This document shows, piece by piece, positions 848 through 23,189 of a DNA stretch of 26,196 nt. Each line of letters begins with the position of its first letter. The first letter of the stretch is position 1. The DNA is taken from positions 1 through 26,196 of IMG/VR virus record IMGVR_UViG_2874945390_000006. One strand, 5' to 3'. A program made the translations under genes and the position numbers. The notes under the pieces are model-generated. The model saw only the letters and a list, made by a program, of their open reading frames with translations. It did no database searches and was not told where the DNA came from. The DNA comes from a virus (taxonomy: Duplodnaviria; Heunggongvirae; Uroviricota; Caudoviricetes).

Positions 848-919
848 TGAAGTGGCACACTGAATTTGGCCACCTGAACAGAGGTGATATGCTCACCTCA
901 GAACAACACAGGTGCTCCA

Positions 920-2088
<1,169 letters not shown>

Positions 2089-2103
2089 CCACTTCAATCT
2101 GAC

Positions 2104-2181
2104 AACTGCCGAATCGTGACCCGACCGTCCTGATGCACGAGTTCCACAATTCGCGTCTTCAGTTCTTCCCGCTGTTCGGGA
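2104..2181 (-). pseudogene. 5' fragment (26 codons) of an unidentified phage gene downstream of the dnaC-like gene, cut by the IS911 right end
   Basis: Reverse complement reads GGAGGA-N5-ATG GCG AAA CCT TTT ACT CCC GAA CAG CGG GAA GAA CTG AAG... (MAKPFTPEQREELKTRIVELVHQDGRVTIRQLSD) and then runs straight into IS911 at 2103. Confidence 0.35.
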
Positions 2182-2212
2182 GTAAAAGGTTTCGCCATAA
2201 ATCCTCCTGAAA

Positions 2213-2959: not shown

Positions 2960-2965
2960 GGTCTG

Positions 2966-4165
2966 TTACCCCCTGAAGCCTGGCGGGATCGCACTGTCCG
3001 GCAACGAGACGGTGTTAACCTGTCGGAGCAACGTCTCAGGCCGAACACCTTTCGGCGCGAACAGACCCTGGTATTCATTGGCGATGCTGTGTCGAATCAC
3101 CTGCTCAGGTGTAAAACCCTGCTGACGGAATTTTTCCAGTTCCCGTATCGCCCCGTTAGCGCCCTGCTCCGTTCGAATTGGTTTTCGCAATGCCTGCCTG
3201 AACTGGACCCACTCATGCCAGAGTGTTTCTGGCAACCAGTCGGGCAGATCAACTGACAACGGGTCAAATTTTTTCTGGCGAACAGCCCCACCGATAACCA
3301 GAATTCCCTGCTCGGTGTGCCTTGCGATATCACTGCGCCGCAAGACACATATCCCGGTTTCAACAGCACCGATTTTGAGCAGTGATTTCTGTCGCGGAGA
3401 ATTTCGGTCAAGCTCGATCCCACACCGGACACCGTTCCTGTCAGTCACGACGATATCAATCCGCCCTCCGCAACCGTCACCACGCTCTGGCACCGGATAC
3501 TCACGACAGACATCCAGGCCAGCAGCCTGCAACGCAACCACCGCAGAATTACAAAATTCCGCTGCAGTACCGCCAGATAATCTCCCCTCAAGCACTCCAG
3601 CCACAAAATCCCGAAACTCCCTTCCGGAAGGGAAGGGTTTGGGATGGGTTAGATCTGTTTTTAGAGCTTTATCTGTATCTTTATTAGTTGCCTTTGTGTT
3701 GGCATCATGTTCGAACACCACTCCAACATCTGTTTGAACACCTGTTAAATTTCTCTCTTGTTTTGTTTGAACATCTGCTTCCTTTCTGCTTCTTCTGGCC
3801 TGAACAGATGCTTTTCCTGCGGCTGATTTTTTGGTTAATTTTTCTCTGACAGATGCCAGATCTTCCTCAATCCGAAGATGCATCCATTCGTCGCCGTTAT
3901 CACAAAAAAACTCCCGCAAGGATGGTTCAACATCAACCCATCGCTCGTTAGTCAGACGGGCAATTTTTGCCAACCTGTTTTTGGGTATTGGCTTTCCTGT
4001 TTGCCAGTAATTGAACATCAGCAACAAATACGCGCCGTGCTCCTCTGCTGACAAATGCATGGTGTCAGCCAGGTAATCAGCTATGTACAGTTGCATGTAT
4101 GGTAATGCGGCCATAATTGCCCCGTATGATGCTGCCCGGTTGCTTAGAATAAGCACAAACAGCAT
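2966..4165 (-). CDS. Phage replication initiation protein, YdaU/DUF1376-like N-terminus with additional central and C-terminal domains
   Basis: N-terminal region MAALPYMQLYIADYLADTMHLSAEEHGAYLLLMFNYW resembles DUF1376; sits immediately upstream of and translationally coupled to the DnaC-like gene. True start may be the internal ATG at 4114. Central segment GRIDIVVTDRNGVRCGIELD is of unknown function. Confidence 0.55.
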   Translation of the reverse strand: MLFVLILSNRAASYGAIMAALPYMQLYIADYLADTMHLSAEEHGAYLLLMFNYWQTGKPIPKNRLAKIARLTNERWVDVEPSLREFFCDNGDEWMHLRIEEDLASVREKLTKKSAAGKASVQARRSRKEADVQTKQERNLTGVQTDVGVVFEHDANTKATNKDTDKALKTDLTHPKPFPSGREFRDFVAGVLEGRLSGGTAAEFCNSAVVALQAAGLDVCREYPVPERGDGCGGRIDIVVTDRNGVRCGIELDRNSPRQKSLLKIGAVETGICVLRRSDIARHTEQGILVIGGAVRQKKFDPLSVDLPDWLPETLWHEWVQFRQALRKPIRTEQGANGAIRELEKFRQQGFTPEQVIRHSIANEYQGLFAPKGVRPETLLRQVNTVSLPDSAIPPGFRG

Positions 4166-4273
4166 GGAAACTTTTGCTTAATGAACAATGACAGAATCGT
4201 CGGAAGACCTGAGGTAGCCTGAGTTTAACGGACACTCCTTCCTGAAATAGAATGGCATCAGAAGGAGCTAATA

Positions 4274-4576
4274 ATGAGCAGAAAAACCCAACGTTACTCT
4301 AAAGAGTTCAAAGCCGAAGCTGTCAGAACGGTTCTTGAAAATCAACTTTCGATCAGTGAAGGCGCTTCCCGATTATCCCTTCCTGAAGGCACTTTAGGAC
4401 AATGGGTTACCGCCGCCAGAAAAGGGCTCGGTACTCCTGGTTCCCGCACGGTGGCTGAACTGGAATCTGAAATTCTGCAACTGCGTAAGGCGTTAAATGA
4501 AGCTCGCCTTGAGCGAGATATATTAAAAAAAGCAACAGCGTATTTTGCACAGGAGTCGCTGAAAAATACGCGTTAA
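4274..4576 (+). CDS. IS600 OrfA
   Basis: 100-aa HTH protein; A7 run at 4525-4531 is the likely -1 frameshift site into orfB. Confidence 0.85.
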   Translation: MSRKTQRYSKEFKAEAVRTVLENQLSISEGASRLSLPEGTLGQWVTAARKGLGTPGSRTVAELESEILQLRKALNEARLERDILKKATAYFAQESLKNTR

Positions 4577-4611
4577 TCGAACAATGGCGACAACAATTTC
4601 CCATTGAAGCG

Positions 4612-5430
4612 ATGTGTCAGGTATTTGGTGTATCCAGGAGCGGTTATTACAACTGGGTACAGCATGAACCCTCAGACAGAAAACAAAGTGATGAGCGGCT
4701 AAAACTGGAGATTAAGGTGGCACATATCTGCACTCGCGAAACATATGGAACCCGGCGGCTCCAGACGGAGCTGGCAGAGAATGGCATCATCGTTGGTCGT
4801 GACCGACTGGCACGTCTTCGTAAGGAGCTAAGGCTACGCTGTAAGCAGAAACGCAAGTTCAGAGCGACTACGAACCCGAACCACAATCTGCCAGTTGCGC
4901 CAAATCTGCTGAACCAGACGTTCGCTCCTACAGAACCAAATCAGGTCTGGGTGGCGGACCTGACGTATGTTGCCACACAGGAGGGATGGTTGTACCTCGC
5001 TGGCATCAAAGATGTTTATACGTGCGAAATTGTCGGCTACGCCATGGGAGAGCGCATGACAAAAGAGCTGACAGGTAAAGCCCTGTTTATGGCGCTCAGG
5101 AGCCAGCGCCCACCTGCCGGGCTAATCCACCACTCTGATCGAGGTTCACAGTACTGCGCATACGATTACCGGGTCATACAGGAGCAGTTTGGTCTGAAAA
5201 CATCAATGTCGCGTAAAGGTAACTGTTACGACAACACTCCGATGGAAAGCTTCTGGGGAACGCTGAAAAATGAGAGCCTGAGCCACTATCGTTTTAATAA
5301 CCGGGATGAAGCCATCTCAGTAATACGGGAATACATTGAGATTTTCTACAATCGTCAGCGTCGTCACTCTCGTCTGGGGAATATCTCCCCGGCAGCCTTC
5401 AGGGAAAAATATCATCAGATGGCTGCTTAA
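4612..5430 (+). CDS. IS600 OrfB (DDE transposase catalytic part)
   Basis: 272-aa ORF in the -1 frame; that frame is open back to the A7 run, consistent with an OrfAB fusion. Confidence 0.85.
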   Translation: MCQVFGVSRSGYYNWVQHEPSDRKQSDERLKLEIKVAHICTRETYGTRRLQTELAENGIIVGRDRLARLRKELRLRCKQKRKFRATTNPNHNLPVAPNLLNQTFAPTEPNQVWVADLTYVATQEGWLYLAGIKDVYTCEIVGYAMGERMTKELTGKALFMALRSQRPPAGLIHHSDRGSQYCAYDYRVIQEQFGLKTSMSRKGNCYDNTPMESFWGTLKNESLSHYRFNNRDEAISVIREYIEIFYNRQRRHSRLGNISPAAFREKYHQMAA

Positions 5431-5473
5431 AAAAAGAACAAATGGTAGTGTCCGCTATTGCCAGTACACCTCA

Positions 5474-6762
5474 CTCTGGCCTGCTCGCTTTGTCTCTTCA
5501 ACAAAGAAATGGTTATCGGTTTCGGCTCCCGTAAAGAGGAATACGTCGACAGCACCGGTGACCCGAAAGCATTGTTCTGGAAGGCGCGCAAGTTCGTGGA
5601 AACACTACCTGTAGAGTTTCGCGGTTCGTGGAGCGAGAAGAAGCATGCGCCATATATGCGTGTTGAGTTTCCTGAAACTGGCGCGGTTATCAAAGGTGAG
5701 GCTGGCGATAATATCGGTCGTGGTGACCGTACGACCCTTTATTTTGTGGATGAGGCTGCTTTTCTCCAGCGACCATTACTTATTGATGCCGCGCTTTCTC
5801 AGACAACCCGACGTCGTATCGATCTCTCATCGGTTAACGGCATGAACAACCCCTTCGCACAGAAGCGGCACAGTGGAAAAATCCCGGTGTTTACGTTTCA
5901 CTGGCGTAGCGATCCGCGTAAAGACGATGAGTGGTATCACAAGGAGTGCGAGAAAATTGATAACCCAGTCATCGTTGCCCAGGAACTGGATCTTAATTAC
6001 CAGGCATCAGCAGAAGGCATCCTGATCCCCTCAGAATGGGTACAGGCTGCGGTTGATGCACATATCAGACTGGGCATTCAGCCCGGCGGGCAACGGCTTG
6101 GTGCAATGGATGTCGCCGACGAAGGGCGGGATAAAAACGCCTGTTCGCTCCGTTATGGCATCCTGCTGAATGACGTACAGGAGTGGTCAGGTAAGGGGAG
6201 TGACATCTATGACTCTGTGGTTAAGGTTTTTGGTCTGTGCGATGACTTTGGTGCCGATGAGTTTCGCTTTGATGAGGACGGATTGGGTGCTGGCGTTCGT
6301 GGTGATGCGCGCGCTATCAACGAACTGCGTGAAGCGGAGGGCATCTGTCAAATCACCGCCACTCCATTCCGGGGCAGCGGGAGCGTGTTTCATCCTGAAA
6401 ATGAAGCTGTTCCCGGTGATAATGGTAAACCGGCTCGTCTGAATAAGGACTTTTTTGTCAATGCCAAAGCCCAGGGGTGGTGGCATCTTCGCAAATTATT
6501 CCGCAATACATTTCGTGCACTACAGGGTATGGAGTATGACCCGGATGAGATTATTTCCATCAGCAGCACAATGGAAAATAAAGACCGGCTGTTGATGGAG
6601 CTGTCACAACCTACCTGGTCAAAAAATGCCACCGGAAAAATTCTTGTGGATAAGCAACCTGACGGAACGAAATCTCCAAACCTGGCTGATTCTGTGATGA
6701 TTGCTTATGCCCCGATGGAAATGCCCATCGTAATTTCTGATGACTTTATGGAGTGGATCTGA
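5474..6762 (+). pseudogene. Terminase large subunit, 5'-truncated (ATPase Walker A region missing) at the IS600 copy 1 right end
   Basis: Frame is open from the IS boundary; Walker B-like [10 protein letters not shown] is present but no Walker A GxxxxGK[ST] precedes it. Position immediately upstream of the portal gene with a TGATG stop/start overlap. Confidence 0.7.
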
Positions 6763-8303
6763 TGTGGCCGTTTAAACGAAAAGAACCGTCAGCGCCGGCG
6801 GTACCGGACAAACAACCTGAACCACAGCCACCGGAAATTAACGATGAGGTGATCGCTTCCGTCCGGCAGAAACCACGGAGGGAGTTTGTTCGCTATGAGC
6901 CACCACCGGGCGTTATCCCGGCACCGGTTCGCGATGCTGTGCTGGCAATGGATGCAATACCGTATGACACCCTGAACAGTCATTATCCTGATTTTGTTTA
7001 TGGTGGTTTCCCGGGCTATCCGTATCTGGCACTTCAGGCGCAGTTACCGGAGTACCGGCGTATGGTCAGTGTGCTTGCCGAGGAGATGACCCGTAAGTGG
7101 ATAAAGGTTAAGGCGGTCGGAGAAGGGGACGACAGCCACGCGTCACGCATAGCGCAGCTTACTGACGCACTGGAGCACTATAACGTACAGGACGTTTTCA
7201 GACTGGCGATTGAGCACGACGGCTTTTTCGGGCGAGGGCAGATTTATATTGATGTGCGTTCGCCATCGGGTATATCTGCCTGGACTGACCCGGCGGAGCT
7301 GGGATCCGGACTGTTTATTTCCGACAAAAAAATCCCGAAAGGTTCCCTGCTGGGGCTTCGTGTTATTGAACCCGTCTGGACGTATCCGGGTATATATAAC
7401 GCGGATAATCTGCTGAGTGATGATTTTTACCGTCCGTCCGAATGGTACGTAATGGGAAAAACGGTTCACGCCAGCCGCATGATTGATCTGATCTCCCGTC
7501 CGGTTCCGGACATGCTGAAGCCGGCCTACAACTTTGGCGGCCTGTCACTGGTTCAGATTGCTGAGCCTTATGTTGATAACTGGCTGCGAACACGCGACAG
7601 CGTGGGCGATATGCTGCATTCGTTTTCGCTGAGCGGGATTAAGACGGATATGACACAGGTATTAAGTGGTAAAAGGGACCCGAATTACGCAAAACGCGCG
7701 GAGTTGTTTAACCGTACCCGTGATAACCGCGGGCTGCTGATGCTGGACAAGACGAACGAAGAGTTTTTCCAGTTCAACACTCCCCTGAGCGGCCTCGACA
7801 CCCTTCAGGCGCAGGCACAGGAACACATGTTCTTTGTCAGTGCCATACCGTCCGTAAAATTCGCCGGGCTGAGCCCAACGGGACTGAATGCGTCGAGTGA
7901 GGGTGAAATCCGGGTGTTTTACGACACCATTGCTGCACTTGCCACCCGTCTTCTGAAGAAACCGCTGAAAAAGGTGCTGGATATTATCCAGTTGTCTGAG
8001 TTCGGCGATATCGATCCTGATATCACGTTTGAATTTGAACCCCTGCATGAGCTGACGCGCGAGCAACTGGCGAATATCCGTAAAACTGAGGCGGAAACGG
8101 ATCAGATTTATGAGAGCACCGGAGCAGTGACCAATAACGAAGTACGCGAACGGCTGGCGACTGCGCAGGACAGCCCGTACAGCGGTATTGACCTGAGCGG
8201 GGACATCGAAATTGACGACACTGAAATTGACAACACCGAAGAAAATCCGCCGCAAGGCCCGAATGCAGACCCTGAGGCGGATTTCACCCAACGCGGGGAT
8301 TGA
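6762..8303 (+). CDS. Phage portal protein
   Basis: About 513 aa, directly after the terminase (ATG 6762 overlaps terminase TGA 6760-6762, RBS GGAGTGG upstream), with the acidic C-terminal tail typical of portals ([14 protein letters not shown]...). Assigned by position, size and composition. Confidence 0.6.
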
Positions 8304-8421
8304 GGCCTGGTACCGCAGACAACTGGATAATGCCGTCAGTGGGATGCACAACAGTGTACTTTACTGGCTGCGGGCTGAGTACCGTAAAACAGACCTCGCG
8401 CAGGATGCGTCCCCGTTAACC
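8212..8421 (+). CDS. Small ORF overlapping the portal 3' end; possibly the displaced N-terminal part of the head morphogenesis gene
   Basis: 70-codon ORF ending in TGA that overlaps the ATG of the next ORF (ATGA); different frame from 8424-9032. Confidence 0.3.
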
Positions 8422-8423
8422 TG

Positions 8424-9032
8424 ATGCGTGGTGCCATGCAGCAACTTGCCCGGCGCTGGCAGAAAAATTTTGACGAAATGGCCCTGCGGCTGGCGAGGCG
8501 GTTTGCCGGTGATGTCCTGAAAAACAGCGATGCGTCACTGTACACTGCGCTCCGTGATGCCGGGTTTACGGTTCCTTTCCGTATGACAACGGAGATGAAT
8601 ACCGCACTTCAGGCCAGCATCACGGAGAATGTGAACCTCATTCGCTCCATCCCGCAGCAACATCTCCCCCAGGTGGAAACACTGGTCATGCAGTCTGTTG
8701 GCCGGGGACGTGACCTGAAAACGCTGACCGATGAACTGGAAAAACGTTACGGCATCACACGACGGCGCGCGGCGCTGATTGCCCGCGACCAGAACAATAA
8801 GGCAACGTCGGTAATGCAGGCCGCCAGACAGCGTTCGGTGGGTATCACTGAAGGTGTCTGGAGGCATTCCCGCGCGGGTAAAACATGGCGTCCGTCGCAT
8901 GTGAAGGCGAACGGTAAACGGTTTGACCTGCGAAAGGGGATGTTTCTGGATGGTAAGTGGGTACTGCCGGGCGAAGAAATCAACTGCCGGTGTGGCTGGG
9001 AGGCCGTTATTCCCGGACTGGAGAAAAAATGA
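8424..9032 (+). CDS. Phage head morphogenesis protein (Mu F / SPP1 gp7-like minor head protein)
   Basis: 202 aa; C-terminal region ...[24 protein letters not shown]...[31 protein letters not shown] resembles the Mu F domain; located after the portal gene. Confidence 0.65.
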
Positions 9033-10378
9033 TTATTACCGAAATGCTGGCGTTTGACCGGGCATCGGTAAGGCAGTTCGATAAAGTCGGTCGCCTCCAG
9101 ATTGAGCGCAGTAATCTCAGCAAGGCGAACGTCTGCGGTTATTTCGGGTATGAAATACCGGGGGCGGAAGCGCTGGGACTCGACCCCAAAAAACTTTATC
9201 AGCTTTACCGTGACCCCGATGAACTGCGCAAGGCAGTTTCAACCTTCAACAATATTCCCGTCCTGTGCCGACACAAACCCGATTATCCGGGCGCGCCCGC
9301 GCGCGAGTACCGGGTGGGGACGACTCATGCCAACAGCGAGTTTGACGGTACCTATCTGGTTAACGGCATGTCCATCTGGGACAACTCCGCCATCGCGGGG
9401 ATAGAAACGGATGAACAACGGAAAATCTCATCGTCATATGCCTATGTGGCAGATATGACGCCGGGAACCACCCCCGACGGTGAGCCGTATGACGGCGTTA
9501 TGCGGAATATCGTGGGAAATCATGTGGCCCTGGTCGGCGATGGCCGGGTAGGGTCGGACTGTCTTGTTATGGACTCTCTCCCTCAGGAGCTAAAACGCAT
9601 GAAACTGAGTAAAAAAGAAGTGGCGGTGCTTATCGCGCTGGGAACCTATCTTGCGCCGCGTCTGGCGCAGGATGCGGCTCCCGGGGATTTGTTACGCCTG
9701 ATGGCGCAGTATAAGCGTCCGGCAGCTATCGCCAGCGCGGTAAAAACTGCTTACAGCGAACGGCTGGCACAGGATATGGATATTGAACCGGCGGAGCTGG
9801 CGCAACTGATGGAATCAGCAGAAGCCGTACCGGAGCTGGTCGGGGATGATGATACCGGGTTAACTGACGAGTCGAAGGCATTTGATACCGACAGCCCGAT
9901 GGAAAGTGTACTGGCGTTGCTGTCCGGCAAAGTTCCTGATGATGTGCTGGAAAAAATTAAATCCGCACTGTCTCCGACAACCGACGAAGCCCCCGAAACA
10001 AAAGAGGCTGATGTGAAACCCGACGATGTGAAAGTCGATAAACCTGCGATGGATGCAGCAATCAGGCTGGCAACTGACCAGGCAACGAAACGGGCTGCTG
10101 AAAATTTCCGCGCCGTCCGTGTGGCTGAAGCTGAAGTGCGACCGCTGATTGGCGATGTGGTGGCGATGGACTGCGCCGAAGATGTTTACCGTACCGCGCT
10201 GGAACAGACGGGGATCGATATTCAGGGTATTCACCCCGGTGCGTACCGCAGCATGGTGAAGTTTGCCGTTGAGCAGAAGCAGACGGCCAAATCCTCTCCC
10301 CGTGTGGCGATGGATCAGGCCAGCGCATCGACGTTTGCGGCAGATTTCCCCGGTGCAAAACTGAAACGAGGTTACTGA
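9029..10378 (+). CDS. Putative prohead scaffold/protease protein (DUF2213-like N-terminus, acidic helical C-terminus)
   Basis: Likely start ATG 9029 ([23 protein letters not shown]...), overlapping the upstream stop; the track ORF starts earlier at 8957. Acidic Ala/Glu/Asp-rich C-terminal half typical of scaffolding proteins; sits between morphogenesis and capsid genes. Confidence 0.45.
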
Positions 10379-10379
10379 T

Positions 10380-10862
10380 ATGAATACTTTTCAGACACAC
10401 ATGAACCAGTACCCGGCACCGGGTATTCCGGGGGCGTTTGCCAGTGCTAACCCTCATGCCTCGTATGTGGCGGGAGATGGCGGGCTGATTACCGGCCCTG
10501 ACGGGCTGGTAATTGCCCGGTTTGCCTGGGTAACCAAAGGTGTTGCCGCTAATAAGGGGGCCGGCGCACCGGCGGGTTTTGTTCCTCGTGACGGGCAGGC
10601 TTCCATTGTGGAATGGCTGGCCGGGGACTCGAACACCATTTATCCGGGGCGTGAATGCACCCTGATGGTGTCGGGGGATTTCTGGGCGCTGACCACCACT
10701 ACTGCGACGATCGGGCAGAAAGTATTTGCCTCACTGGCCACCGGGGAGATAGCCACGGGGGCGGCTGGCACCTCGATGGCGGGGTTTGTCGAAACCTGGT
10801 TTTCCGTTGCCAGCGCTGCGGCGGCAAAAGAAGTCATTAAGATCAGTACCTGGAGCAAATAA
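10380..10862 (+). CDS. Putative capsid decoration / small head structural protein
   Basis: 160-aa Gly/Ala-rich protein immediately upstream of the major capsid gene, 2 bp after the preceding stop. Confidence 0.4.
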
Positions 10863-11890
10863 TGAATAAATTTAAACAGCATTATGCGACGGCAAGTCGC
10901 GACTACGGGATTATTCTTCCCGGAGCACAGGCTTATTTGCCGAAGGAGTACGCTGCCGATTACGGACTGGCGATGGACGCGCAGCCTGCGCTGGTCACAG
11001 CGGCTAACAGCGGTATCCCTGCGTATTTCACCAATTACGTTGAGCCAGAACTGATCCGCGTGCTGGTGACGCCGATGAAAGCCGCTCAGATTCTGGGCGA
11101 AACCAAAAAAGGTGACTGGACGACACTGTCGGCACAATTCCCGATTGCAGAATCTGACGGGGAGGTGAGTTCCTACGGGGATTACAGCAACAACGGGGTG
11201 GTAAGCGCAAACGTCAACTGGGTACCGCGCCAGAGCTATCACTTCCAGACCTTCACCGTATGGGGCGAACGTGAGCTGGAGATGTACGGCGCAGCCCGTA
11301 TTGGCTGGGCGGCAGAGCTGAACGTGGCGTCAGCACTGACGCTGAATAAGTTCCAGAATAAGTCCTATTTCTACGGTATTGCCGGACTGACGAACTACGG
11401 TTTGCTGAATGATCCGTCGTTATCTGCACCAATCACCCCGGATACCGTTGACGGTAAACTGAAGTGGGACGACAAGGACGGACAGGGCGTGTATGACGAT
11501 ATCGTGAAACTCTTTGAGCAACTGGTGAAACAGACTAACGGTCATATTGAGCGTACCGACAAAATGAAACTGTGCATGTCGCCGCTGGCAGAGGTGAACC
11601 TCACCAAAACAAACCAGTACAGGGTTAACGTGTCCGATCTGCTGGCGAAAAATTTCCCGGCGATGACCATTGAAACGGCGGTGGAATACACCTCTGACGC
11701 TGGCGAGCTGGTACAGCTTATCGCGGAGCGTCTGGGTGAACAGGATACAGGCTATTGCGCTTTCACTGAAAAAATGCGCGCCCATGCGGTAGTGGCAGAT
11801 ACGTCTTCCTGGAAACAGAAAAAATCCGCTGGTACCTGGGGGGCGATTATTCGCCAGCCGCTGGCGTATGCACAAATGCTGGGGGTGTGA
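10862..11890 (+). CDS. Major capsid protein
   Basis: 342-aa ORF in the canonical position after scaffold and decoration genes; ATG overlaps the upstream stop (TAATG). Confidence 0.6.
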
Positions 11891-11893
11891 GTT

Positions 11894-12241
11894 ATGGCTG
11901 AAATGGTAACAGTGGGCTGTAAACTGCCGAACGGTCTGGTGCTGGAAGTGGGTCAGAAACGGGTTCAGGTGGCAGGCTGGCGGAATAACGCGGTTAAAAT
12001 TGTGGGGGGCTATGGTCTGACGCAGGTCGATAAGGTGTTTTTTGACGCCTGGCTGGCGGAGCACGGACAGCAACCTTATGTGAAAAATGGCGTTATTTTT
12101 GCGCAGGATAAGGCGAACAGTGCAGTCTCGCAGGCTACGGAGCAGAAAGCCGTTAAATCCGGCCTTGAACCGCTGCCGCAGAAAAATCCGGCTCCGGGCG
12201 TTAACCGCAATGATGAAGTGATGGGTAAACCTCAGGAGTAA
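11894..12241 (+). CDS. Hypothetical small head-associated protein
   Basis: 115-aa ORF tightly packed between the capsid and connector genes; no recognisable motif. Confidence 0.4.
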
Positions 12242-12246
12242 ACGCT

Positions 12247-13278
12247 ATGGGTACGGTGACGTTTGACTGTCGGATGTTTGTCAGTCTGTACCCGGAGTTT
12301 TCCACGGTGACACCGGAGCTACTGACGGCGGTGTTTAACCAGGCGACCGCGTTGTACCTGGATAACACGGACGACAGTCCGGTTACCGACCTGAAGGAGC
12401 GGGAACAGCTTCTGTTCCTGCTGGTTGCGCATCTGTGCGCATTGCGGGGGCTGGGAAACGGGAGAGACGGGCAGGCTGGTCTGGTGGGGCGTATCACCAG
12501 TGCGTCGGAAGGTTCTGTATCGGTATCGGTGGATAATAGCGGCAGTAATGATGCGTCGTGGTGGTATCTCCAGACCCCCTGGGGTGCTGACTACTGGCAG
12601 GCGACAGCGCCATACCGCTCAATGCAGTATCATTCCGGGGGGCACCTTCGCGATATCCGGGGCATTATTACCGGGGATACGGGAGGGGCGTCGATGGTAA
12701 ATAAAGTCACAGGTGGCAAACAGTTCCGGCAGACGCTGAAACAGGTTGCCGCGAACCTTTCATTGGGTAAAAAACTCAAAGTGGGTTTTCTTGAGGGAGC
12801 AACTTACCCTGACGGTACGTCAGTGGCTTATATTGCCGCAGTTCAGGAGTTTGGCGGAAGAGCGGTCATACCCGCCCGTGAGCAGACGCTCCACTTTCGC
12901 TATAACGAAAAAACGGGAGAAACCGGGCACCGCTTTGTCAAAGCCGGTAAAGGGAATTTTGTTCAGGATGTGGTTATTCCTGAGCACACGGTCACCATTC
13001 CCCCCCGTCCGTTCTTCCGTAAGATGATCGAACATAAAAGTCCCGAATGGGGCGAAAAAATGGCGACCTTATTACGGGCGAATGATTTTGATACTGCGAC
13101 CGCTCTGGTGTGTATGGGAGAACATATCAAAGGGCAGTTGCAGATGTCTGTTCGCGACTGGGAAAGTCCGCCCAACGCTGCATCCACTGCCCGGCAAAAG
13201 GGTTTTAACAACCCGCTTATTGAAACCGGACATATGATGGACAGCGTTGATTATTCTGTAGACGGGGGCAAAAAATGA
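12247..13278 (+). CDS. Head-tail connector-like protein (DUF4054-like N-terminal region fused to an HK97 gp10-like C-terminal region)
   Basis: 343 aa; N-terminal [38 protein letters not shown]... resembles DUF4054; C-terminal part (...[36 protein letters not shown]...) resembles gp10-family tail-completion proteins; Gly-rich linker between them. Confidence 0.4.
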
Positions 13279-13640
13279 ACTTTCACGGTATTGTTTCCGG
13301 CGCAGTACGTCGGGTAAATCCCTTTACAGACGCGCTGGTTTATCGTTCCCGCGGGAGTACACAGCAGGCAGATTATTCCCGCGTACCTGAGTATGAAGAT
13401 CCGGTTTCCGTCAGGGTGCAAAAGCAGGCTGTCACTCAGGCTGATTTACGTCATCTTGATAATCTTAACCAGCAGGGAGTTTTCGCCACATTGTATACCG
13501 ATGGTAACTGGTGCGGGCTTAACCGTGCCCGGCAACAGGGAGGCGATAAATTTGTTATTGGCGATGAAACGTGGCTGGTGATTGAGGTACCGGAAATCTG
13601 TCCTGACTGGACGAGGGTTATTGTATGCCTTCAGGTGTGA
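13275..13640 (+). CDS. Hypothetical phage head-tail joining protein
   Basis: 121-aa ORF overlapping neighbours in the usual ATGA style; position between connector and neck genes. Confidence 0.4.
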
Positions 13641-14171
13641 CCCTCTCCGTTACGGAAAGCGCTCTTTATCAGGCCCTCGGTGATTATCTCCGGGGGCTTT
13701 TTTTCTGATGCCGGGATTGAACGAACGCAGCAGAACCAGGTCCCGATGCCTCAGGGGAATTTCATCACCATGACGGGCATTGATGTTACCGGATTATCCA
13801 CTGCGGTAGTGGCATATTCTGCGCCAGCGCAGGCTGGTGAGGGCTCTCAGCATATCACCCGTACCACAAAATGGCGTTGCCAGCTTGATTTCTACGGCCC
13901 TCACGCGGCAGATAACGCGCAGGTGCTGGCAACGCTTTTCCGGTCTGAATTTTCCGTACGGCTTTTCCGGCAGGGCGGTGGGCTGATTTCCCCGCTGTAT
14001 TGCTCAGAGCCCTTTAACACCACATTCCCCAACGGTCAGCAACAGTATGAACCGCGCTGGACGCTTGATATTCAGATGCAGATTAACCCTGTGGTCACAA
14101 CTTCCCTGATGTTTTTTGACAACGTGATCACCCGGACAACGGAGGCTGATAATGCCAATTCCACTCAGTAA
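13625..14171 (+). pseudogene. Neck/tail terminator-like structural gene interrupted by a +1 frameshift in a T7 homopolymer (13698-13704)
   Basis: ATG 13625 with RBS GAGGG 8 nt upstream gives [27 protein letters not shown] and stops at 13706-13708; the remainder of the protein (SDAGIERTQQNQVPMPQG..., track ORF 13680-14171) continues in the +1 frame. Removing one T from the run fuses the two. Confidence 0.5.
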
Positions 14172-15636
14172 AGATGTACAGATAAATCCCGGTGTGCTGG
14201 CTGTGGCGGGTAATGCCGTCGATCTTAACGGCCTGCTGTTGACCAGTAATCCGTTACTTCCGGTCGGCACTGTGGTTCCGTTTTCCTCTCCGGATGATGT
14301 GGCCGCGTATTTTGGTGCATTATCCGATGAGTACGCACGCGCTCAGCTTTATTTCCAGGGCTTCAAAAATGCCACCAGGACGCCGGGGCAATTGTTGTTT
14401 TCCCGTTTCAGTCCTGCCCCATCGGCGGCCTGGTTACGTAGCGGTTCGTTTAAGGGCGCGACTGTTGAACAGCTACAAAAACTTTCCGGCACGCTGATGC
14501 TGAGTATTAACGGGAAAAGCGTCAGCATTGAAGTGAATTTTAACGGTGTCGCCAGCTTCGCCGCTGCTGCAACGGCACTACAGACAGCGCTGACCGCAGC
14601 AGTGGCTACAGTGGTATTCGATACCACACAGAATGCTTTTGTCATTACTGTCGCCGGGGCGAAACCCGAGAGTACCACGATAACGTTCGGCAGTGGATCG
14701 GCAGCAGAACTCCTGAAGATGACCAGTAACACCGGTGCGGTGATATCCCGGGGCGCGCCTGTATCTGATGTCCCTGACACAATGGCAGCCATTAAGGCCG
14801 CTTCCCAGCAATGGGCGGGTTTTTCCACGGTATCTGAGGTCACTGACGAGCAACACCTGGCGTTTTCTGCATGGGCAAACGGGCAGGGCAAGCGTTACTT
14901 TTATGTGGCATGGACAACCAGCGGCAACGCCAGAGTAAAAGGCAGTACTGAACACATCGCTTACCAGATAATTGCTGTCAATAACTACAGCTCTGTTGTA
15001 CCTGTTTTCGCGACTGATGGTAACCGGGCTGCAGCGGTACTGGGGTATGCAGCGTGCCTTGATTTTGTCCGACCAGAGGGGCGTGTATCATTCAAGTTCC
15101 GCGAGTATGAGGGGCTGGCCGCTGATGTTACCAGTGGCAGCGATTATGATGCGCTGATCGCCGCAGGTTACAATTTCTACGGAAAATATGCGGAAAACAG
15201 TGTGGTGGAAGATTACTGGGCGGATGGCACTATTACCGGTGATTTTAAATGGCTGGACAGTTTCTGCGGGCAAATCTGGCTGAATGCCAGTTTGCAGGGG
15301 GCGGTGATCGCGTTATTCAAGTCAAACCAGACGATCCCCTACAACAATGAAGGGCGGGCGCTGGTTGCAGCGTCAATGAGTGACGTTATCCAGCAGTACA
15401 AACGCTGGGGAGGGATCCGTGAAGGGGGGACACTGACGGAGGCGCAGAAGAAACAGATTAACAATGTTGTGGGGGCAGATGTTTCTTCAACGTTGTTTGC
15501 CACCGGCTATTACCTGTATATCGGCGATATGCTTCCCTCTTTGCGGGCAACCCGTAGCAGTCCGTCCTGTACGCTCTGGTACTGTGACGGCGGTAGTATC
15601 CAGAAACTTGTTATTGCATCCACGGAGGTCCAGTAA
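14152..15636 (+). CDS. Contractile tail sheath protein (DUF3383-like)
   Basis: 494 aa, RBS GGAGG 8 nt upstream of ATG 14152; size and sequence character of phage sheath proteins; followed directly by a tube-sized gene. Confidence 0.7.
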
Positions 15637-16083
15637 ATGTCGGGTAACAACAACACCATCACTGCGGCGGATGCCATTATCACGCTGACAGTGAATAATC
15701 TGTATCCCTCCGGCGTACGACTTCAGGGATTTGCAACAGATAACGTTTATGGCACCGATCCACTGGTACTGGCGGAAACTGCCCGCGGTATTGACGGTAA
15801 ACTGTCCGCGGGATTTGTGTACAGCAACATTATCCAGACGTTTCATATCATGCCGGATTCCCCCAGCCGGGATATTTTTGATACTTGGTTAACCACATCC
15901 CGGGCCAGTCGGGCTGTATTCCGTTGTAACGCTGTCGTCCTGCTTCCGGCGATTGGCCGTAAATATACCTGCGTGAATGGCGTACTCAAACAATGGAAAG
16001 CGCTGCCTGATGCAGCTCGTACGTTGCAGCCAGGGCAGGCGGTTATTGAGTGGGAAACCATTACTCCGGAGGTTTTTAACTGA
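15637..16083 (+). CDS. Tail tube protein
   Basis: 148 aa, GGAGG RBS, directly downstream of the sheath gene. Confidence 0.6.
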   Translation: MSGNNNTITAADAIITLTVNNLYPSGVRLQGFATDNVYGTDPLVLAETARGIDGKLSAGFVYSNIIQTFHIMPDSPSRDIFDTWLTTSRASRAVFRCNAVVLLPAIGRKYTCVNGVLKQWKALPDAARTLQPGQAVIEWETITPEVFN

Positions 16084-16487
16084 TGGCCCGTAAAGAGAAA
16101 TTTATCACTATTGAAGGTCAGGGACGGGATAAGGGCAAGGTATTTCATCTTACCGAAATGTCTGCCTCACAGGCGGAATGGTGGGCGATGCGTGCCATTA
16201 TGGCAATGGGGCGTGGTGGCGTGGAGTTACCGGATGATGTTCGTAGTCTGGGGATGGCTGCGCTTGCCCTTGAAGGGCTGAAAGCATTATCGAAAATTCC
16301 GCCTGATGAGGCGCGTCCGTTGATGGATGAAATGATGGACTGTGTGCAGTTTGTTCCCGATCCGAAAAAACGCAGCATCCGGAGACCGCTTGTTGAAGAG
16401 GATATTGAAGAAATCATTACCCGTCTTAATCTGCGTGCGGAGGTCTTTAAGCTGCATGTGGATTTTTTCGCTACCGTCGTCAGCTAG
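16083..16487 (+). CDS. Tail assembly chaperone (pre-tape-measure gene)
   Basis: 134-aa acidic protein between the tube and tape measure genes; ATG overlaps the tube stop. Confidence 0.45.
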   Translation: MARKEKFITIEGQGRDKGKVFHLTEMSASQAEWWAMRAIMAMGRGGVELPDDVRSLGMAALALEGLKALSKIPPDEARPLMDEMMDCVQFVPDPKKRSIRRPLVEEDIEEIITRLNLRAEVFKLHVDFFATVVS

Positions 16488-16528
16488 ATATCCCCCCGCG
16501 TTATCTCGACCCCGACAGACCGTTCGGG

Positions 16529-16711
16529 GTGGTGGATTACGTTAATGTTCCCCGTACCATTGCGACCGTTATCTCCTCCGGTAAGGCTTCAAAAGCTGAA
16601 CTGGATTCTGTCCTTGGTGTGCAGGACTTATGGGATCTGCTGGAAATAATTCATGTGGATGCCCATAACGAACAGGTGATACAGGAGAACAGAAATGGCG
16701 CAGGTACTTGA
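16529..16711 (+). CDS. Small hypothetical ORF preceding the tape measure gene (possible second chaperone component)
   Basis: 60-codon ORF with GTG start; overlaps the tape measure start by 17 nt; does not overlap the chaperone ORF. Confidence 0.3.
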   Translation: MVDYVNVPRTIATVISSGKASKAELDSVLGVQDLWDLLEIIHVDAHNEQVIQENRNGAGT

Positions 16712-16776
16712 TGAGCTTGTTCTGTCCCTCGGGATTGATGACAGGGACTTTACTGCCGGGGAACAGGCAGTACATG

Positions 16777-16779
16777 CTG
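16777..16779. repeat. 3-bp target-site duplication (CTG), left copy, of IS600 copy 2
   Basis: CTG immediately before the IS end at 16780 matches CTG at 18044-18046. Confidence 0.7.
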
Positions 16780-16822
16780 TGAGGTGTACTGGCAATAGCG
16801 GACACTACCATTTGTTCTTTTT

Positions 16823-17641
16823 TTAAGCAGCCATCTGATGATATTTTTCCCTGAAGGCTGCCGGGGAGATATTCCCCAGACGAGAGTGACGACGCTGACG
16901 ATTGTAGAAAATCTCAATGTATTCCCGTATTACTGAGATGGCTTCATCCCGGTTATTAAAACGATAGTGGCTCAGGCTCTCATTTTTCAGCGTTCCCCAG
17001 AAGCTTTCCATCGGAGCGTTGTCGTAACAGTTACCTTTACGCGACATTGATGTTTTCAGACCAAACTGCTCCTGTATGACCCGGTAATCGTATGCGCAGT
17101 ACTGTGAACCTCGATCAGAGTGGTGGATTAGCCCGGCAGGTGGGCGCTGGCTCCTGAGCGCCATAAACAGGGCTTTACCTGTCAGCTCTTTTGTCATGCG
17201 CTCTCCCATGGCGTAGCCGACAATTTCGCACGTATAAACATCTTTGATGCCAGCGAGGTACAACCATCCCTCCTGTGTGGCAACATACGTCAGGTCCGCC
17301 ACCCAGACCTGATTTGGTGCTGTAGGAGCGAACGTCTGGTTCAGCAGATTTGGCGCAACTGGCAGATTGTGGTTCGGGTTCGTAGTCGCTCTGAACTTGC
17401 GTTTCTGCTTACAGCGTAGCCTTAGCTCCTTACGAAGACGTGCCAGTCGGTCACGACCAACGATGATGCCATTCTCTGCCAGCTCCGTCTGGAGCCGCCG
17501 GGTTCCATATGTTTCGCGAGTGCGGATATGTGCCACCTTAATCTCCAGTTTTAGCCGCTCATCACTTTGTTTTCTGTCTGAGGGTTCATGCTGTACCCAG
17601 TTGTAATAACCGCTCCTGGATACACCAAATACCTGACACAT
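16823..17641 (-). CDS. IS600 OrfB (transposase catalytic part)
   Basis: 272 aa, near-identical to the copy 1 OrfB (I/R, E/A and T/A differences). Confidence 0.85.
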   Translation of the reverse strand: MCQVFGVSRSGYYNWVQHEPSDRKQSDERLKLEIKVAHIRTRETYGTRRLQTELAENGIIVGRDRLARLRKELRLRCKQKRKFRATTNPNHNLPVAPNLLNQTFAPTAPNQVWVADLTYVATQEGWLYLAGIKDVYTCEIVGYAMGERMTKELTGKALFMALRSQRPPAGLIHHSDRGSQYCAYDYRVIQEQFGLKTSMSRKGNCYDNAPMESFWGTLKNESLSHYRFNNRDEAISVIREYIEIFYNRQRRHSRLGNISPAAFREKYHQMAA

Positions 17642-17676
17642 CGCTTCAACAGGGAATTGTTGTCGCCATTGTTCGA

Positions 17677-17979
17677 CTAACGCGTATTTTTCAGCGACTC
17701 CTGTGCAAAATACGCTGTTGCTTTTTTTAATATATCTCGCTCAAGGCGAGCTTCATTTAACGCCTTACGCAGTTGCAGAATTTCAGATTCCAGTTCAGCC
17801 ACCGTGCGGGAACCAGGAGTACCGAGCCCTTTTCTGGCGGCGGTAACCCATTGTCCTAAAGTGCCTTCAGGAAGGGATAATCGGGAAGCGCCTTCACTGA
17901 TCGAAAGTTGATTTTCAAGAACCGTTCTGACAGCTTCGGCTTTGAACTCTTTAGAGTAACGTTGGGTTTTTCTGCTCAT
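17677..17979 (-). CDS. IS600 OrfA
   Basis: 100 aa, identical to the copy 1 OrfA; T7 run 17722-17728 is the reverse complement of the slippery A7. Confidence 0.85.
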   Translation of the reverse strand: MSRKTQRYSKEFKAEAVRTVLENQLSISEGASRLSLPEGTLGQWVTAARKGLGTPGSRTVAELESEILQLRKALNEARLERDILKKATAYFAQESLKNTR

Positions 17980-18043
17980 TATTAGCTCCTTCTGATGCCA
18001 TTCTATTTCAGGAAGGAGTGTCCGTTAAACTCAGGCTACCTCA

Positions 18044-18046
18044 CTG
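18044..18046. repeat. 3-bp target-site duplication (CTG), right copy, of IS600 copy 2
   Basis: See left copy at 16777-16779. Confidence 0.7.
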
Positions 18047-19979
18047 CCCTTAACCGGCTCACGACGGTGATGGAAGGTGTCGCTGACACATTCAGTCAGG
18101 GACAGAAGAAAACCAGTGAATCACTGGAAAAAACCGGAAAAGATGCTGATAAAACGGCCCGTCGAATGGAAGATGCCGGGAAACGGGCGTCCCGTTTTTT
18201 TTCAGGGATCCGTAGCGAGATTCTGGCTCTTGCGGGTGTCAGTCTGACGCTGGGGGGGCTGAAGAACCTGGTAACAGGTTTTGCCCGTGATCTGAACCGT
18301 CTGTCCGTGGAATCTGATGCTTTTGGCATGAAGGCCAGAAATCTGGACGGATGGTTACGGGCTGCGCGGGCAAATAATGTTGATGAAGGGGAAATGTCTG
18401 GGGCATTTTCCCGGCTTGCAAATGCAAAAGCGGCCTTCAGAGCCGGAAGGTCCTTTGATCCTGTGTTACAGGATTTGTTTCAGGTTGCAGCCAGGGCGGG
18501 CATTAGTGTTGATTTAAATACTGACAGCACTGAAGCCATCATGCGCAAGCTGGCGGTTATTTTTCCGCGACTGACAAAGTCCGAACAAACTGCCTACGGC
18601 AACGCGCTGGGCTTCAGTTATGCCGGACAGCAGTTTCTTGGCTCCGGTCATGCGCTGAAAGATGTGGACGAATTTACTTCCCGTTCGCAGGTTACGCCGG
18701 AGCGTATAGCGCTGGCCCGTAAGCTACGAAAAGAGCTTGTTGAGCTCGAACAGACCTGGTCCGGCATCGGGATGACGATTAGCACCGCGTTGATGCCGTA
18801 CGCGCTGAAGCTCAGCCACTGGCTGGAGACACTCGGTGACTGGATGCAGCAACATCCGGAGGAAGTGAACAGGTTTATCACCACATTTCTGAATGACGTT
18901 GAGTCAGTGGCCTCCCTGGCGAATAAGGCTGCCGGAGAACTGGGGGGCTGGCAGAATGTCATTATTACGCTGATCGGGCTGAAAGTGGCGTCATGGGTGC
19001 GGGGGCTGACAAAAGCCCTCAGTGGCCCCGGAGGCCTTCTTTTTGCGATAACGGCGCTTTACCCGGTTGTTGACGGATTACTGACATCCATTGTTGGCAG
19101 GGAAAATAAGGACTGGCTGGATTCACATGGTTTTTTCTGGGCTTCAGACGGGACTTTCTTTTTCAATAAGAAAGAGATGGAGACGTATCAGACAAAACTG
19201 GATGCCGGAGAAAAGCCTGGCAACATCACCCGGGCACAATCACCCACAGTATGGCAGCAGGGCATGCTGGATACTCAGGCTTCTCAGGCAACCGGGAGGG
19301 AAGCAGCCTTCGGTGAATCCTGGCTACAGGGTATGCGTGCGACGCAGGAAAAACTCGGTAATGCCATGCAAAACCGCCAGCGACCGACGAAGACCGGGGA
19401 AGCCCTGTTAGGCTGGCTGCAACCGAAACTGTCTCAACTGGAGGAAAAATATAACCTGCCGCCCGGACTGCTGCGCAGCGTTGCGATCACCGAATCCCGT
19501 GGTAATCAGTTTGCCGTCTCACCTGCTGGTGCGATGGGACTGTTTCAGTTCATGCCGAAGACGGCCAGTGAATTTGGTCTGAGGGGGAACGATGCCTTTG
19601 ATCCCGAAAAAGCCGCTGATGCCGCCGCGAGAAAACTTGGTGGCCTGATACGTTTTTTTCATGGCGATCTGGCTAAGGCTCTGGCGGCATATAACTGGGG
19701 AGAGGGAAATGTTCAGCGTAAGGGACTGGCTGCTGCTCCGGAGGAGACCCGCAACTATATTCCGCGGGTGCTGGCGAACCTGCCTTATCCGGGTGCGGCA
19801 ATGGCCATACGGTCGCGCCATCCTGCGCCTGTATCGCAGTCCACCGTAACGGAAACCACGCATATCGGGACACTGAATGTCACCACAACGTCGGACAATG
19901 TGAAGGGTATTACCGATGACGCACGTCGGCGTATCACGAATTCGGCGCTTGTGTCGGTTTATTCCAGCGGGGTAACAGG

Positions 19980-20430
19980 ATGAGTTTTTCTTTCGATAAT
20001 ATTTCCCTGAATAACTTTTCGCTCAGTGAAAGTAACGTACTGAGTGCAGTTCGTGGCGGCGGTGTCCTGGGACTCATTAACAGTGTACTGGCACCGTCAT
20101 TCGGTATTTATTACGCACGGAATGATCCGGCAGGTGCCCATCAGAAGGGTGGCAAACCTTTCTCCCCGGATTCTTTTGTTGTCGTTGAGGTGGGCGCGGA
20201 GGCTTCTGTTTCCACCGTCCCCGTGGAGCAGGGGGCTTATACCACCTTTAATAAAATCCAGAGATCGCCGGAACTGCATGTGACTTTCACTGTAGAGGGG
20301 TGGACGGCCTTTTCCGGATCCGTCCCGAACCTGACAAATTTTTCCACCACCTCGCGGACGAATGTGCTGGAAACGCTTGAAAGGATGCGTACCACGGCAG
20401 GACTCTACGATATTGAGACGCCGGACAAGA
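19980..20430 (+). pseudogene. Tail-associated protein gene following the tape measure gene, 3' end replaced by the IS66-family element
   Basis: ATG 19980 overlaps the tape measure stop (ATGA); the ORF runs into the IS inverted repeat at 20431 and terminates inside it (track ORF 19980-20459). Confidence 0.45.
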
Positions 20431-20512
20431 GTAAGCGCCCCATCAGCGACGTCTTGTGAAAATTGTCCTGTCTGGCAACAATCGCGCCCATCTATATAGA
20501 TGGACACGAACG

Positions 20513-21187
20513 ATGAATTCCCAGACAAAAAAAGATATTCCCTGCTTCCGTTCTTATTTGCCTGATGCCCTGCGTTTAAGATTTGAAGATAAACTGACCA
20601 TCCGGGCCATCGCTCAGCGTCTGGGTCTCAGTCATTCCACAATACATACGCTTTTTCAGCGATTTCTTGCATCCGGTATCGCATGGCCATTGCCCGATTC
20701 AGTTTCATTCGCTCAACTTGACGCCATCCTTTATGCCAACAGAAAGAAGGAATTAACAGAGCCTCAAATCAGAGAAGGCTCATGGCGAAAAGAACGGCGA
20801 ACCAGCTATAGCCGTGAATTTAAGGTCCGTCTGGCTAAGCAGGCGTTACAGCCTGGGGCTGTTGTTGCCCGGATCGCCAGAGAACACGATATCAATAATA
20901 ACCTGCTGTTTAAATGGAAAAGCCAGTACGAGGACGGCTTACTGAGCGATGATGACATACAGGAATGCATGCCTGTCCCGGTGGCACTGACTGATACGCC
21001 GGAGCCGACCAGACCAGTTACAAATCCCTTCTGGCGTAACAAGCATGATGAGCGCCCTGAGGGGGCTCCCGGAAACGTCCCACGGTGCGAGCTGCATCTT
21101 AAATCAGGTGTGGTAAAACTGTTTGACCCTCTCACTCCGGAACTGTTACGGGCGCTAATCCGCGAAATGAAAGGGGGTATCCGATGA
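20513..21187 (+). CDS. IS66-family TnpA (Orf1, HTH accessory protein)
   Basis: Start at ATG 20513 (MNSQTKK...); contains ...RRTSYSREFKVRLAKQALQPGAVVARIAREHDINNNLLFKWKSQYEDG typical of IS66 Orf1. The track ORF begins at 20456, inside the inverted repeat. Confidence 0.7.
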   Translation: MNSQTKKDIPCFRSYLPDALRLRFEDKLTIRAIAQRLGLSHSTIHTLFQRFLASGIAWPLPDSVSFAQLDAILYANRKKELTEPQIREGSWRKERRTSYSREFKVRLAKQALQPGAVVARIAREHDINNNLLFKWKSQYEDGLLSDDDIQECMPVPVALTDTPEPTRPVTNPFWRNKHDERPEGAPGNVPRCELHLKSGVVKLFDPLTPELLRALIREMKGGIR

Positions 21188-21531
21188 TAACGCTGCCGAC
21201 CGGTACCAAAATCTGGATCATCGCTGGCATCACAGATATGCGTTGTGGCTTCAATGGCCTGGCTTCGAAGGTGCAGAACACGCTGAAAGATGACCCGTTC
21301 TCCGGGCATATCTTCGTCTTCCGGGGCCGCAGTGGCAAAATGGTGAAAATACTGTGGGCCGATCGTGACGGGTTATGCCTGTTCGCCAAACGCCTGGAAC
21401 GGGGCCGCTTCGTCTGGCCGGTGACCCGGGAAGGGAAAGTGCACCTGACGCCAGCTCAGTTATCCATGCTACTGGAGGGGATCGCGTGGCAACATCCCAA
21501 ACGGACAGAACGGCCTGGCATCCGGATATAA
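21184..21531 (+). CDS. IS66-family TnpB (Orf2)
   Basis: 115 aa, MITLPTGTKIWIIAGITDMRCGFNGL...ILWADRDGLCLFAKRLERGRFVWP, the conserved IS66 Orf2 family. Confidence 0.85.
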   Translation: MITLPTGTKIWIIAGITDMRCGFNGLASKVQNTLKDDPFSGHIFVFRGRSGKMVKILWADRDGLCLFAKRLERGRFVWPVTREGKVHLTPAQLSMLLEGIAWQHPKRTERPGIRI

Positions 21532-21592
21532 CCCGTGATAAAACAAGGGAATGAACAATTAACTCCCCGATGATATTGAGCTGCTTAAAGCC

Positions 21593-23157
21593 ATGTTGCG
21601 TAAGCAACAGAGTCGGCTTCGACAGTATGCCTGTCAGGTCGCGGGCTATGAGCAGGAAATTGAACGGCTGAAAGCGCAACTCGACAGGTTGCGTCGTATG
21701 TTGTTCGGCCAGAGTTCAGAGAAAAAGCGTCATAAGCTTGAAAATCAGATCCGACAGGCAGAAAAACGACTGTCGGAACTGGAAAACCGGCTGAACACAG
21801 CCAGAAATCTTCTGGAAGATGCATCGTCAGTCACAGATTCACCTGACACCAGTCCCCCGTCAGAAAACCCGATCGCCAGTAAGCCTGAATCCCCGGGACG
21901 AAAATCTTCACGAAAACCGCTGCCGGCAGAACTTCCCCGGGAGACACATCGCCTTCTGCCTGCTGAAACCAGTTGCCCGGCCTGTGGAGGTGTTCTGAAA
22001 GAAATGGGGGAAACAATCTCAGAGCAACTGGATATCATTAATACCGCCTTTAAAGTTATCGAAACCATACGTCCCAAACTGGCCTGTAGCCGGTGTGATG
22101 TCATCGTTCAGGCACCACTTCCCCCTAAACCGATCGAACGCGGTTATGCCAGTGCAGGGTTACTTGCACGGATCCTGGTCAGCAAATATATGGAACATAT
22201 CCCTTTATATCGCCAGTCAGAAATATACGCGCGACAGGGCGTGGAGCTGAGCCGTAATACCATGGTGCGCTGGGTATCAGAAATGGCAGACAAACTCCGT
22301 CCTCTGTATATAGCGCTGAATGACTATGTTCTTGAGGCAGGAAAGGTGCACGCAGATGGCACTCCGGTGAAAGTACTGGCCCCGGGGAACGGAAAGACGA
22401 AAACGGGTCGTCTGTGGGTATACGTCAGGGATGATCGTAATGCGGGTTCATCCCTGCCGGCAGCCGTCTGGTTCGCGTATTCGGCAGATCGCAAAGGAGA
22501 ACATCCGCAGCTCCACCTGGCAAAGTATCAGGGCGTACTGCACTGCAGGCTGATGCCTATGCAGGTTATAACGTACTGTACGAAACGGGCCGGGTGAAGG
22601 AAGCCGGGTGCCTGGCCCACGCCCGCCGAAAAATCCATGACGAGGATGTGCGCCGTCCGACAGAAATGACTCAGGAAGCGCTCAGACGGATAGCAGAGTT
22701 ATACGACATAGAAGCGGAGATACGTGGCAGTCCGGCAGAGGAACGGCTTGCAGTCAGAAAAGCCAGAAGCGTCCAGTTGATGCAGTCGTTGTACGACTGG
22801 ATACAGTTGCAGAGGAAAACGCTGTCGAAACATGCGGAGATGGCGAAGGCGTTCGACTATATCCTGAATCACTGGAATGCGCTGAACGAGTTCTGTCGTG
22901 ACGGCTGGGTGGAAATAGACAACAACATCGGTGAAAACGCGTTACGATCGGTGGCGGTTGGAAGAAAAAATTATCTCTTTTTCGGCTCAGACAAGGGAGG
23001 AGAAAGTGCGGCGATCATCTACAGTCTGCTGGTCACCTGCAAACAGAACGAAGTGGAGCCGGAGGACTGGTTGCGCGAAGTGATCGAGAAGCTCAATGAC
23101 TGGCCGTCGAACCAAGTGCATGAACTGCTGCCCTGGAACTTCTCGTCTGTAAAATAA
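21593..23157 (+). pseudogene. IS66-family transposase TnpC (Orf3), disrupted by a 5-bp tandem duplication (CTGCA CTGCA at 22538-22547)
   Basis: Track ORFs 21593-22597 and 22594-23157 are two halves of one transposase (…CPACGG…HADGTPV…[12 protein letters not shown]… then …[13 protein letters not shown]…[13 protein letters not shown]…). Deleting 5 nt restores the conserved [32 protein letters not shown] stretch. Confidence 0.8.
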
Positions 23158-23189
23158 TCCTTACGCTACGTACTTCTCGGGGCGCTTAC

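Follow-up and report, generated by a model that had tools for sequence, protein, structure and literature searches.

A complete copy of the insertion sequence (IS) IS600 has very probably transposed into the tape measure gene of a decaying Shigella boydii prophage. The prophage is contained in the IMG/VR virus record IMGVR_UViG_2874945390_000006 (Caudoviricetes), of which the whole stretch of 26,196 nt was analysed and is referred to here as the window. It is 100% identical to GenBank CP026836.1, which is listed as S. boydii (PMC12817139). In the course of events that we propose, one IS600 would have moved by the usual IS3-family route, in which an OrfAB transposase is made via a -1 frameshift and 3 bp of the target are duplicated. 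The target would have been codon 28/29 of the tape measure gene, within a temperate prophage of the myovirus type located beside sitABCD. The insertion appears to have been simple, with flanks that are still contiguous and an intact CTG duplication, and it would have left the gene in two parts, a 43-aa stub and a promoterless remainder of 645 codons that lacks a Shine-Dalgarno sequence. Little or no functional tape measure protein would then be made and the gene would be a pseudogene. Owing to its other IS-associated deletions, the prophage would presumably be unable to build tails or package DNA in any case. Nothing was found that contradicts the structural part of this reading.

The IS600 insertion and its empty site

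The element at 16780-18043 is a complete IS600 (IS3 family) of exactly 1264 bp, antisense to the phage gene that it splits. Its termini, TGAGGT...ACCTCA, are of the 5'-TG...CA-3' type. The terminal inverted repeats are imperfect, with 20 of the first 28 terminal bases matching in an ungapped comparison, and they were therefore missed by a repeat search with a 9-nt seed and revealed by direct end-to-end comparison. Over the 1264 bp the element showed 99.6% identity to copies named 'IS3-like element IS600 family transposase' by NCBI, and it differed from the other copies examined at 5-7 nt. Two full-length open reading frames (ORFs) are present on the minus strand: orfA (17677-17979; 100 aa), which matched Pfam HTH_Tnp_1 (1.5e-20), and orfB (16823-17641; 272 aa), with HTH_21 and the rve DDE integrase core (3.2e-26). 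An A7G slippery run for -1 frameshifting is located near the orfA end (around 17728-17721, minus strand), and OrfAB would be produced there by a programmed -1 frameshift. The assignment to IS600 made in the initial annotation is borne out by the identity to the named copies, the IS3-type gene pair and the A7G site.

The trinucleotide CTG directly abuts both termini, at 16777-16779 on the left and at 18044-18046 on the right, so that the boundaries and the target duplication first read from the sequence proved exact to the base. A 3-bp match alone would occur by chance with a probability of 1/64. The duplication carries more weight than that, because three uninterrupted copies of the gene (loci L001, L002 and L007) show one CTG and both flanks in the window align onto the same CTG. 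Three independent IS600 insertions each have a 3-bp duplication: CTG in the window, AAC and GGG in the tail sheath genes of enteroinvasive Escherichia coli (EIEC).

The 5' fragment of the split gene (16695-16779, plus strand) comprises the first 28 codons and 1 base and is preceded by a GGAG Shine-Dalgarno sequence upstream of the ATG at 16695. Translation from this ATG enters IS600 and stops at 16826, which gives a stub of 28 native and 15 IS-encoded residues. The 3' fragment (18046-19983, plus strand) encodes residues 29-673 of the restored protein, followed by the stop codon. Its reading frame stays open as far back as an ATG at 17995 within the IS600 end, resulting in a chimeric ORF of 662 aa (17995-19983) of which the first 17 residues are IS-encoded. 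When the element and one CTG copy were removed in silico, joining 16695-16779 to 18047-19983, the two halves came together in frame as had been proposed: the product of 2022 nt is a multiple of three, has no internal stop and encodes 673 aa reading ...GEQAVHAALNRLTTVMEGV....

A search of 5426 complete E. coli genomes with this excised gene gave matches in nine EIEC genomes, each consisting of one uninterrupted piece at 99.7-99.9% identity. The EIEC genomes that were examined further are of the invasive type; the fetched loci carry ipaH, and several of the genomes also match large plasmids with ospC4. The three uninterrupted copies that were read at the site have GTACATGCTGCCCTTAAC, with one CTG, and differ from the restored gene at 2-4 of the 2022 nt. 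All intact homologues read ...GEQAVHAALNRL....

The locus most directly comparable to the window was identified from its neighbourhood. In CP026836.1, sitDCBA comes after the prophage, and a search for the prophage-sitD junction returned the same arrangement in five EIEC genomes. The sit-adjacent prophage of strain VL46 (L007) has a complete late region in which the 673-aa gene is intact. Positions 5476-16779 of the window aligned to L007 9001-20305 at 99.75% identity and positions 18044-20430 to L007 20303-22689 at 99.83%, and both flanks share one CTG, at L007 20303-20305. Judged from this alignment, the VL46 prophage is the orthologous empty site, at 99.8% identity; the comparison is the one that the initial annotation had called for, and its view that the element simply inserted into a gene that had been intact holds. 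The prophage of RMDEC465 (L006) was considered as an orthologous locus and rejected, as it is the ipaH3 / yebY-pphA prophage and is not sit-adjacent.

Identity of the interrupted gene

The split gene can be assigned with high confidence to a tape measure protein with a C-terminal lytic transglycosylase domain, on the basis of gene position and PHROG homology, in agreement with its initial naming as a tape measure gene. The restored protein matched phrog_2013, labelled 'lytic tail protein', from end to end (2e-246). Three further families that carry the label tail length tape measure protein were also matched: phrog_2276 over residues 1-607 (1.4e-30), phrog_9570 over residues 1-463 (5.5e-21) and phrog_8125 over residues 65-380 (6e-13). 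A Pfam search with the restored protein returned the SLT domain (PF01464) at residues 493-598, together with a weak SLT_2 match (E<=0.01).

The genes upstream form a contractile tail module on the plus strand. An intact tail sheath gene (DUF3383 / E217_gp31; 14152-15636) is followed by an intact tail tube gene (E217_Gp32; 15637-16083) and by a tail assembly chaperone ORF of 134 aa (16083-16487; phrog_1932). A second ORF in the -1 frame (16451-16711) overlaps the last 37 nt of the chaperone ORF and the first 17 nt of the tape measure gene, and a canonical slippery sequence, T_TTT_TTC, is located at 16463-16469 in the zero frame of the chaperone gene. The two ORFs are thus likely to be expressed as a G/GT-type pair by programmed -1 frameshifting. 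Such G/GT-like chaperone arrangements classically precede tape measure genes, and the pair directly upstream points to the following gene as the tape measure gene. Baseplate, plug, hub and spike genes come after the tape measure gene in intact relatives. Sheath, tube, chaperone, small ORF, tape measure homologue and baseplate are also arranged in this order in the isolated phage Edno5, in which no other candidate gene is present.

Several observations count against this assignment. No Pfam tape-measure model matched the restored protein, for which only SLT was found; as such a match is absent from many genuine tape measures, this weakens the assignment only slightly. The name given by NCBI is just 'lytic transglycosylase domain-containing protein', and the isolated-phage records contain no relative with more than 35% identity to the restored protein. 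For these reasons the tape measure label rests on position and on homology at the level of PHROG families.

The alternative that follows from these observations is that the split gene encodes a separate virion-associated lysin, a 'lytic tail protein', and that tail length is set by another protein. This would fit with SLT as the sole Pfam domain, with the best PHROG label and with the 'transglycosylase' label that homologues carry at NCBI and in most phage records. It would also fit with the match in the PDB to the tape measure of Pseudomonas phage Pa193, which is limited to the SLT domain. However, the N-terminal 460 residues lie outside the lysin domain and match the three tape-measure PHROGs at 1e-30 to 6e-13, and the split gene is the sole large ORF that separates the chaperone pair from the baseplate genes, in the window as well as in the EIEC prophages and in Edno5. 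Moreover, tape measures that bear a transglycosylase domain are documented: gp41 of Pa193 (PDB 9B45) was identified as one by cryo-EM (PMC11456595). We consider a separate lysin very unlikely and retain the assignment as a tape measure gene.

Consequence, spread and age of the insertion

In long-tailed phages, tail assembly cannot begin without the tape measure protein. No Shine-Dalgarno sequence was found before the ATG at 17995, and no outward promoter was found that would lead from IS600 towards the 3' fragment; the sole promoter-like site in the vicinity belongs to IS600 itself, faces inward and lies on the other strand. Loss of tape measure function is likely, given the truncation after 28 residues, the remainder that lacks both a Shine-Dalgarno sequence and a promoter, and the requirement for the protein in tail initiation. 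The further claim of the initial annotation, that the insertion alone should abolish tail assembly, is plausible; it is moot, as the baseplate block, the 5' end of the terminase gene and the upstream late genes have been lost as well.

A point against complete inactivation is that read-through from the late operon, with re-initiation at ATG 17995 or at the native Met36, could give a slightly shortened protein. In its strongest form, this would mean that IS600 did not kill the gene and that the chimeric 662-aa ORF is expressed and functions as a free lytic transglycosylase or as a tape measure with an altered N-terminus. The in-frame ATG in the IS600 terminus does provide an uninterrupted ORF of this length, which RefSeq (WP_241560032.1) and gene callers list as a protein. 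Against this stand the lack of an outward-facing promoter-like site and of a Shine-Dalgarno sequence at 17995, the loss of translational coupling to the chaperone gene, and the deletion of the baseplate hub and spike, which are needed as partners. The window copy further carries two private substitutions relative to every intact homologue seen, both non-synonymous (G247E and D263E in restored residues); they are compatible with relaxed constraint or decay after inactivation, in a number far too small to test this. A functional chimera thus seems even less probable than a separate lysin. We give still less credence to a variant in which the 662-aa chimera, expressed via read-through of IS600, has been kept in the service of the host as a periplasm-directed free lytic transglycosylase or as a membrane-active protein. 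The reading of the gene as an IS-disrupted pseudogene is preferred, and this is the right annotation for it; the RefSeq entry, an S. boydii 'lytic transglycosylase domain-containing protein', is an annotation artefact that joins IS and phage sequence.

The distribution of the insertion was investigated in a collection of 15 billion proteins, which was searched for the chimeric and the intact ORFs. The chimeric ORF was present on two contigs only, CP026836.1 and a short-read contig of 2.5 kb. The latter stems from an independent assembly, begins in the IS600 end at 17991 and is identical to the window up to 20484, 54 bp into an IS66-family element. Intact 673-aa versions were found on 377, 188 and 100 contigs, including those of S. 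boydii, S. flexneri and S. dysenteriae, and the junction between IS600 and the tape measure gene was found in none of the 5426 complete E. coli genomes. The best reading of this distribution is that the insertion is recent, at the level of a strain or clone, and the junction could serve to mark the strain or lineage of the CP026836.1 S. boydii clone. The description of the event as 'fairly recent' in the initial annotation is supported indirectly by the intact duplication and by two assemblies against hundreds of intact contigs, with none among the E. coli genomes; the event can neither be dated nor be placed in order relative to the other lesions of the prophage. That the element was misplaced in the finished chromosome as an assembly artefact has a next to negligible probability: hundreds of near-identical IS copies do complicate the assembly of Shigella genomes (PMC7373316), but here the boundaries fit to the base and are accompanied by a 3-bp duplication, the independent contig breaks at 17991 and 20484 as short-read assemblies do at repeats, and the IS600 copy at 16780-18043 differs from the second copy in the window at 7 positions.

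Other lesions of the prophage and comparison with known systems

The window contains three further IS copies, and none of these is flanked by a target duplication, which agrees with the initial statement that the copy in the tape measure gene is the only one with a preserved duplication. The first gene after the tape measure gene is a truncated baseplate protein gene (19980-20430, plus strand), of which the first 451 of 711 nt remain before it is cut by the IS66-family element (20431-23189, plus strand). The ends of this element form a perfect 11-bp inverted repeat, GTAAGCGCCCC; its flanks (GGACAAGA versus ATTGGTAC) show no 8-bp target duplication. Two overlapping ORFs (21593-22597 and 22594-23157) take the place of a continuous tnpC, so that the element looks defective. 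It stands in the place of 5080 bp that are present in VL46 (L007 22690-27769). Lost with them are the 3' portion of the baseplate protein gene, the genes for the plug, hub, spike, sheath initiator, baseplate J and DUF2612 proteins, and most of a tail fibre gene.

A second IS600 (4210-5473, plus strand) lies in the orientation opposite to the first, to which it is 99.45% identical with 7 nt differences. No target duplication was found (flanks ACC versus CTC). The large terminase gene on its right lacks the first 333 nt and begins at nt 334, and all upstream late genes are gone; to its left are replication genes on the opposite strand. This arrangement suggests an IS-mediated deletion or inversion at the second IS600. 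As the two inverted copies are 11.3 kb apart, recombination between them could invert the head-tail block. A match of VL40 to 4210-5473 was considered as a shared insertion of this copy and rejected; it is the IS600 in the sheath gene of VL40.

At the left end of the window, a tyrosine recombinase (integrase) ORF (1-873, minus strand) runs into an IS911 (about 847-2096), which interrupts the integrase gene and is 100% identical to an EIEC copy. No target duplication was found here either (flanks GAT or ATA versus ATC), and the flanks of IS911 are not contiguous: a DnaC-like loader gene (2213-2959, minus strand) is located on its far side. The missing duplications at IS911, at the second IS600 and at the IS66-family element are consistent with IS-mediated deletions or rearrangements. 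The minus-strand ORFs in 2097-4209 (248 and 399 aa) were also considered as istA/istB of an IS21-type element, and this was rejected, as no terminal repeats are present. The 248-aa ORF encodes a DnaC-like helicase loader, which reaches the curated cut-off of NF009043 (PRK12377) and scores far below the cut-off for IstB. By these matches, 2097-4209 is phage replication DNA and not an IS.

Among the closest systems for comparison are the sibling prophages of Shigella and EIEC (EIEC strains VL46, VL40, O121 201805972 and RMDEC465), which have ipaH or sitABCD at their right end. Their head and tail genes share 99.1-99.9% nucleotide identity with those of the window and are arranged in the same order. 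The EIEC siblings are IS-riddled as well, with IS600 at two different positions in the sheath gene, and differ from the window in that their tape measure gene is uninterrupted. The sit-adjacent copy of VL46 has a complete late region, whereas in the window copy the baseplate block is missing and so is the left portion of the late operon.

The two IS600 copies in the sheath genes of EIEC siblings occupy independent sites (L001 17604-18867 and L002 17941-19204), equivalent to ~15489-15491 and 15412-15414 of the window and flanked by AAC and GGG, respectively. The tail module of these prophages has thus been struck repeatedly by IS600. The cargo directly after the DUF4376 gene of the tail-fibre region varies among the siblings. 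It consists of the sitABCD iron/manganese transporter in the window prophage and in the five EIEC genomes, and of the type III secretion system effector genes ipaH3 or ipaHb at other sibling loci (cargo at L003 18403-21852, L007 30823-34272, L001 29865-31580 and L002 32402-34228). The virulence cargo is kept while the phage genes decay. Taken with the two sheath-gene insertions, the split tape measure gene shows sit- and ipaH-carrying prophages that are immobilised with their cargo genes retained. In itself it is a clean, fully documented gene disruption by IS600 in Shigella with an orthologous empty site, and of little import beyond bookkeeping.

Among isolated phages, the closest homologues of the restored protein are from temperate Klebsiella phages, at about 35% identity. 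The tape measure of Pa193, gp41, shares with it the gene position in an E217/Pa193-like contractile tail module with a DUF3383/E217_gp31 sheath and an E217_Gp32 tube, and a similar placement of the SLT domain (residues 493-598 here, 491-582 reported for gp41). The two proteins differ in length, with 673 aa here compared to 858 aa in Pa193, and the similarity detected between them is confined to the SLT domain.

IS600 belongs to a group of five IS that have expanded in all Shigella species; each Shigella reference genome contains IS copies in the hundreds, along with at least 199 pseudogenes (Hawkey et al. 2020, PMC7373316). The element described here shares with the IS600 of Shigella its length, the TG...CA ends, orfA/orfB with the A7G site, the 3-bp duplication and, as is typical of Shigella, the disruption of a gene. 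It differs from known IS600 in nothing substantive; only two assemblies were seen to carry it at codon 28/29 of the tape measure gene. The event is a textbook case of the already known IS expansion that erodes Shigella genomes.

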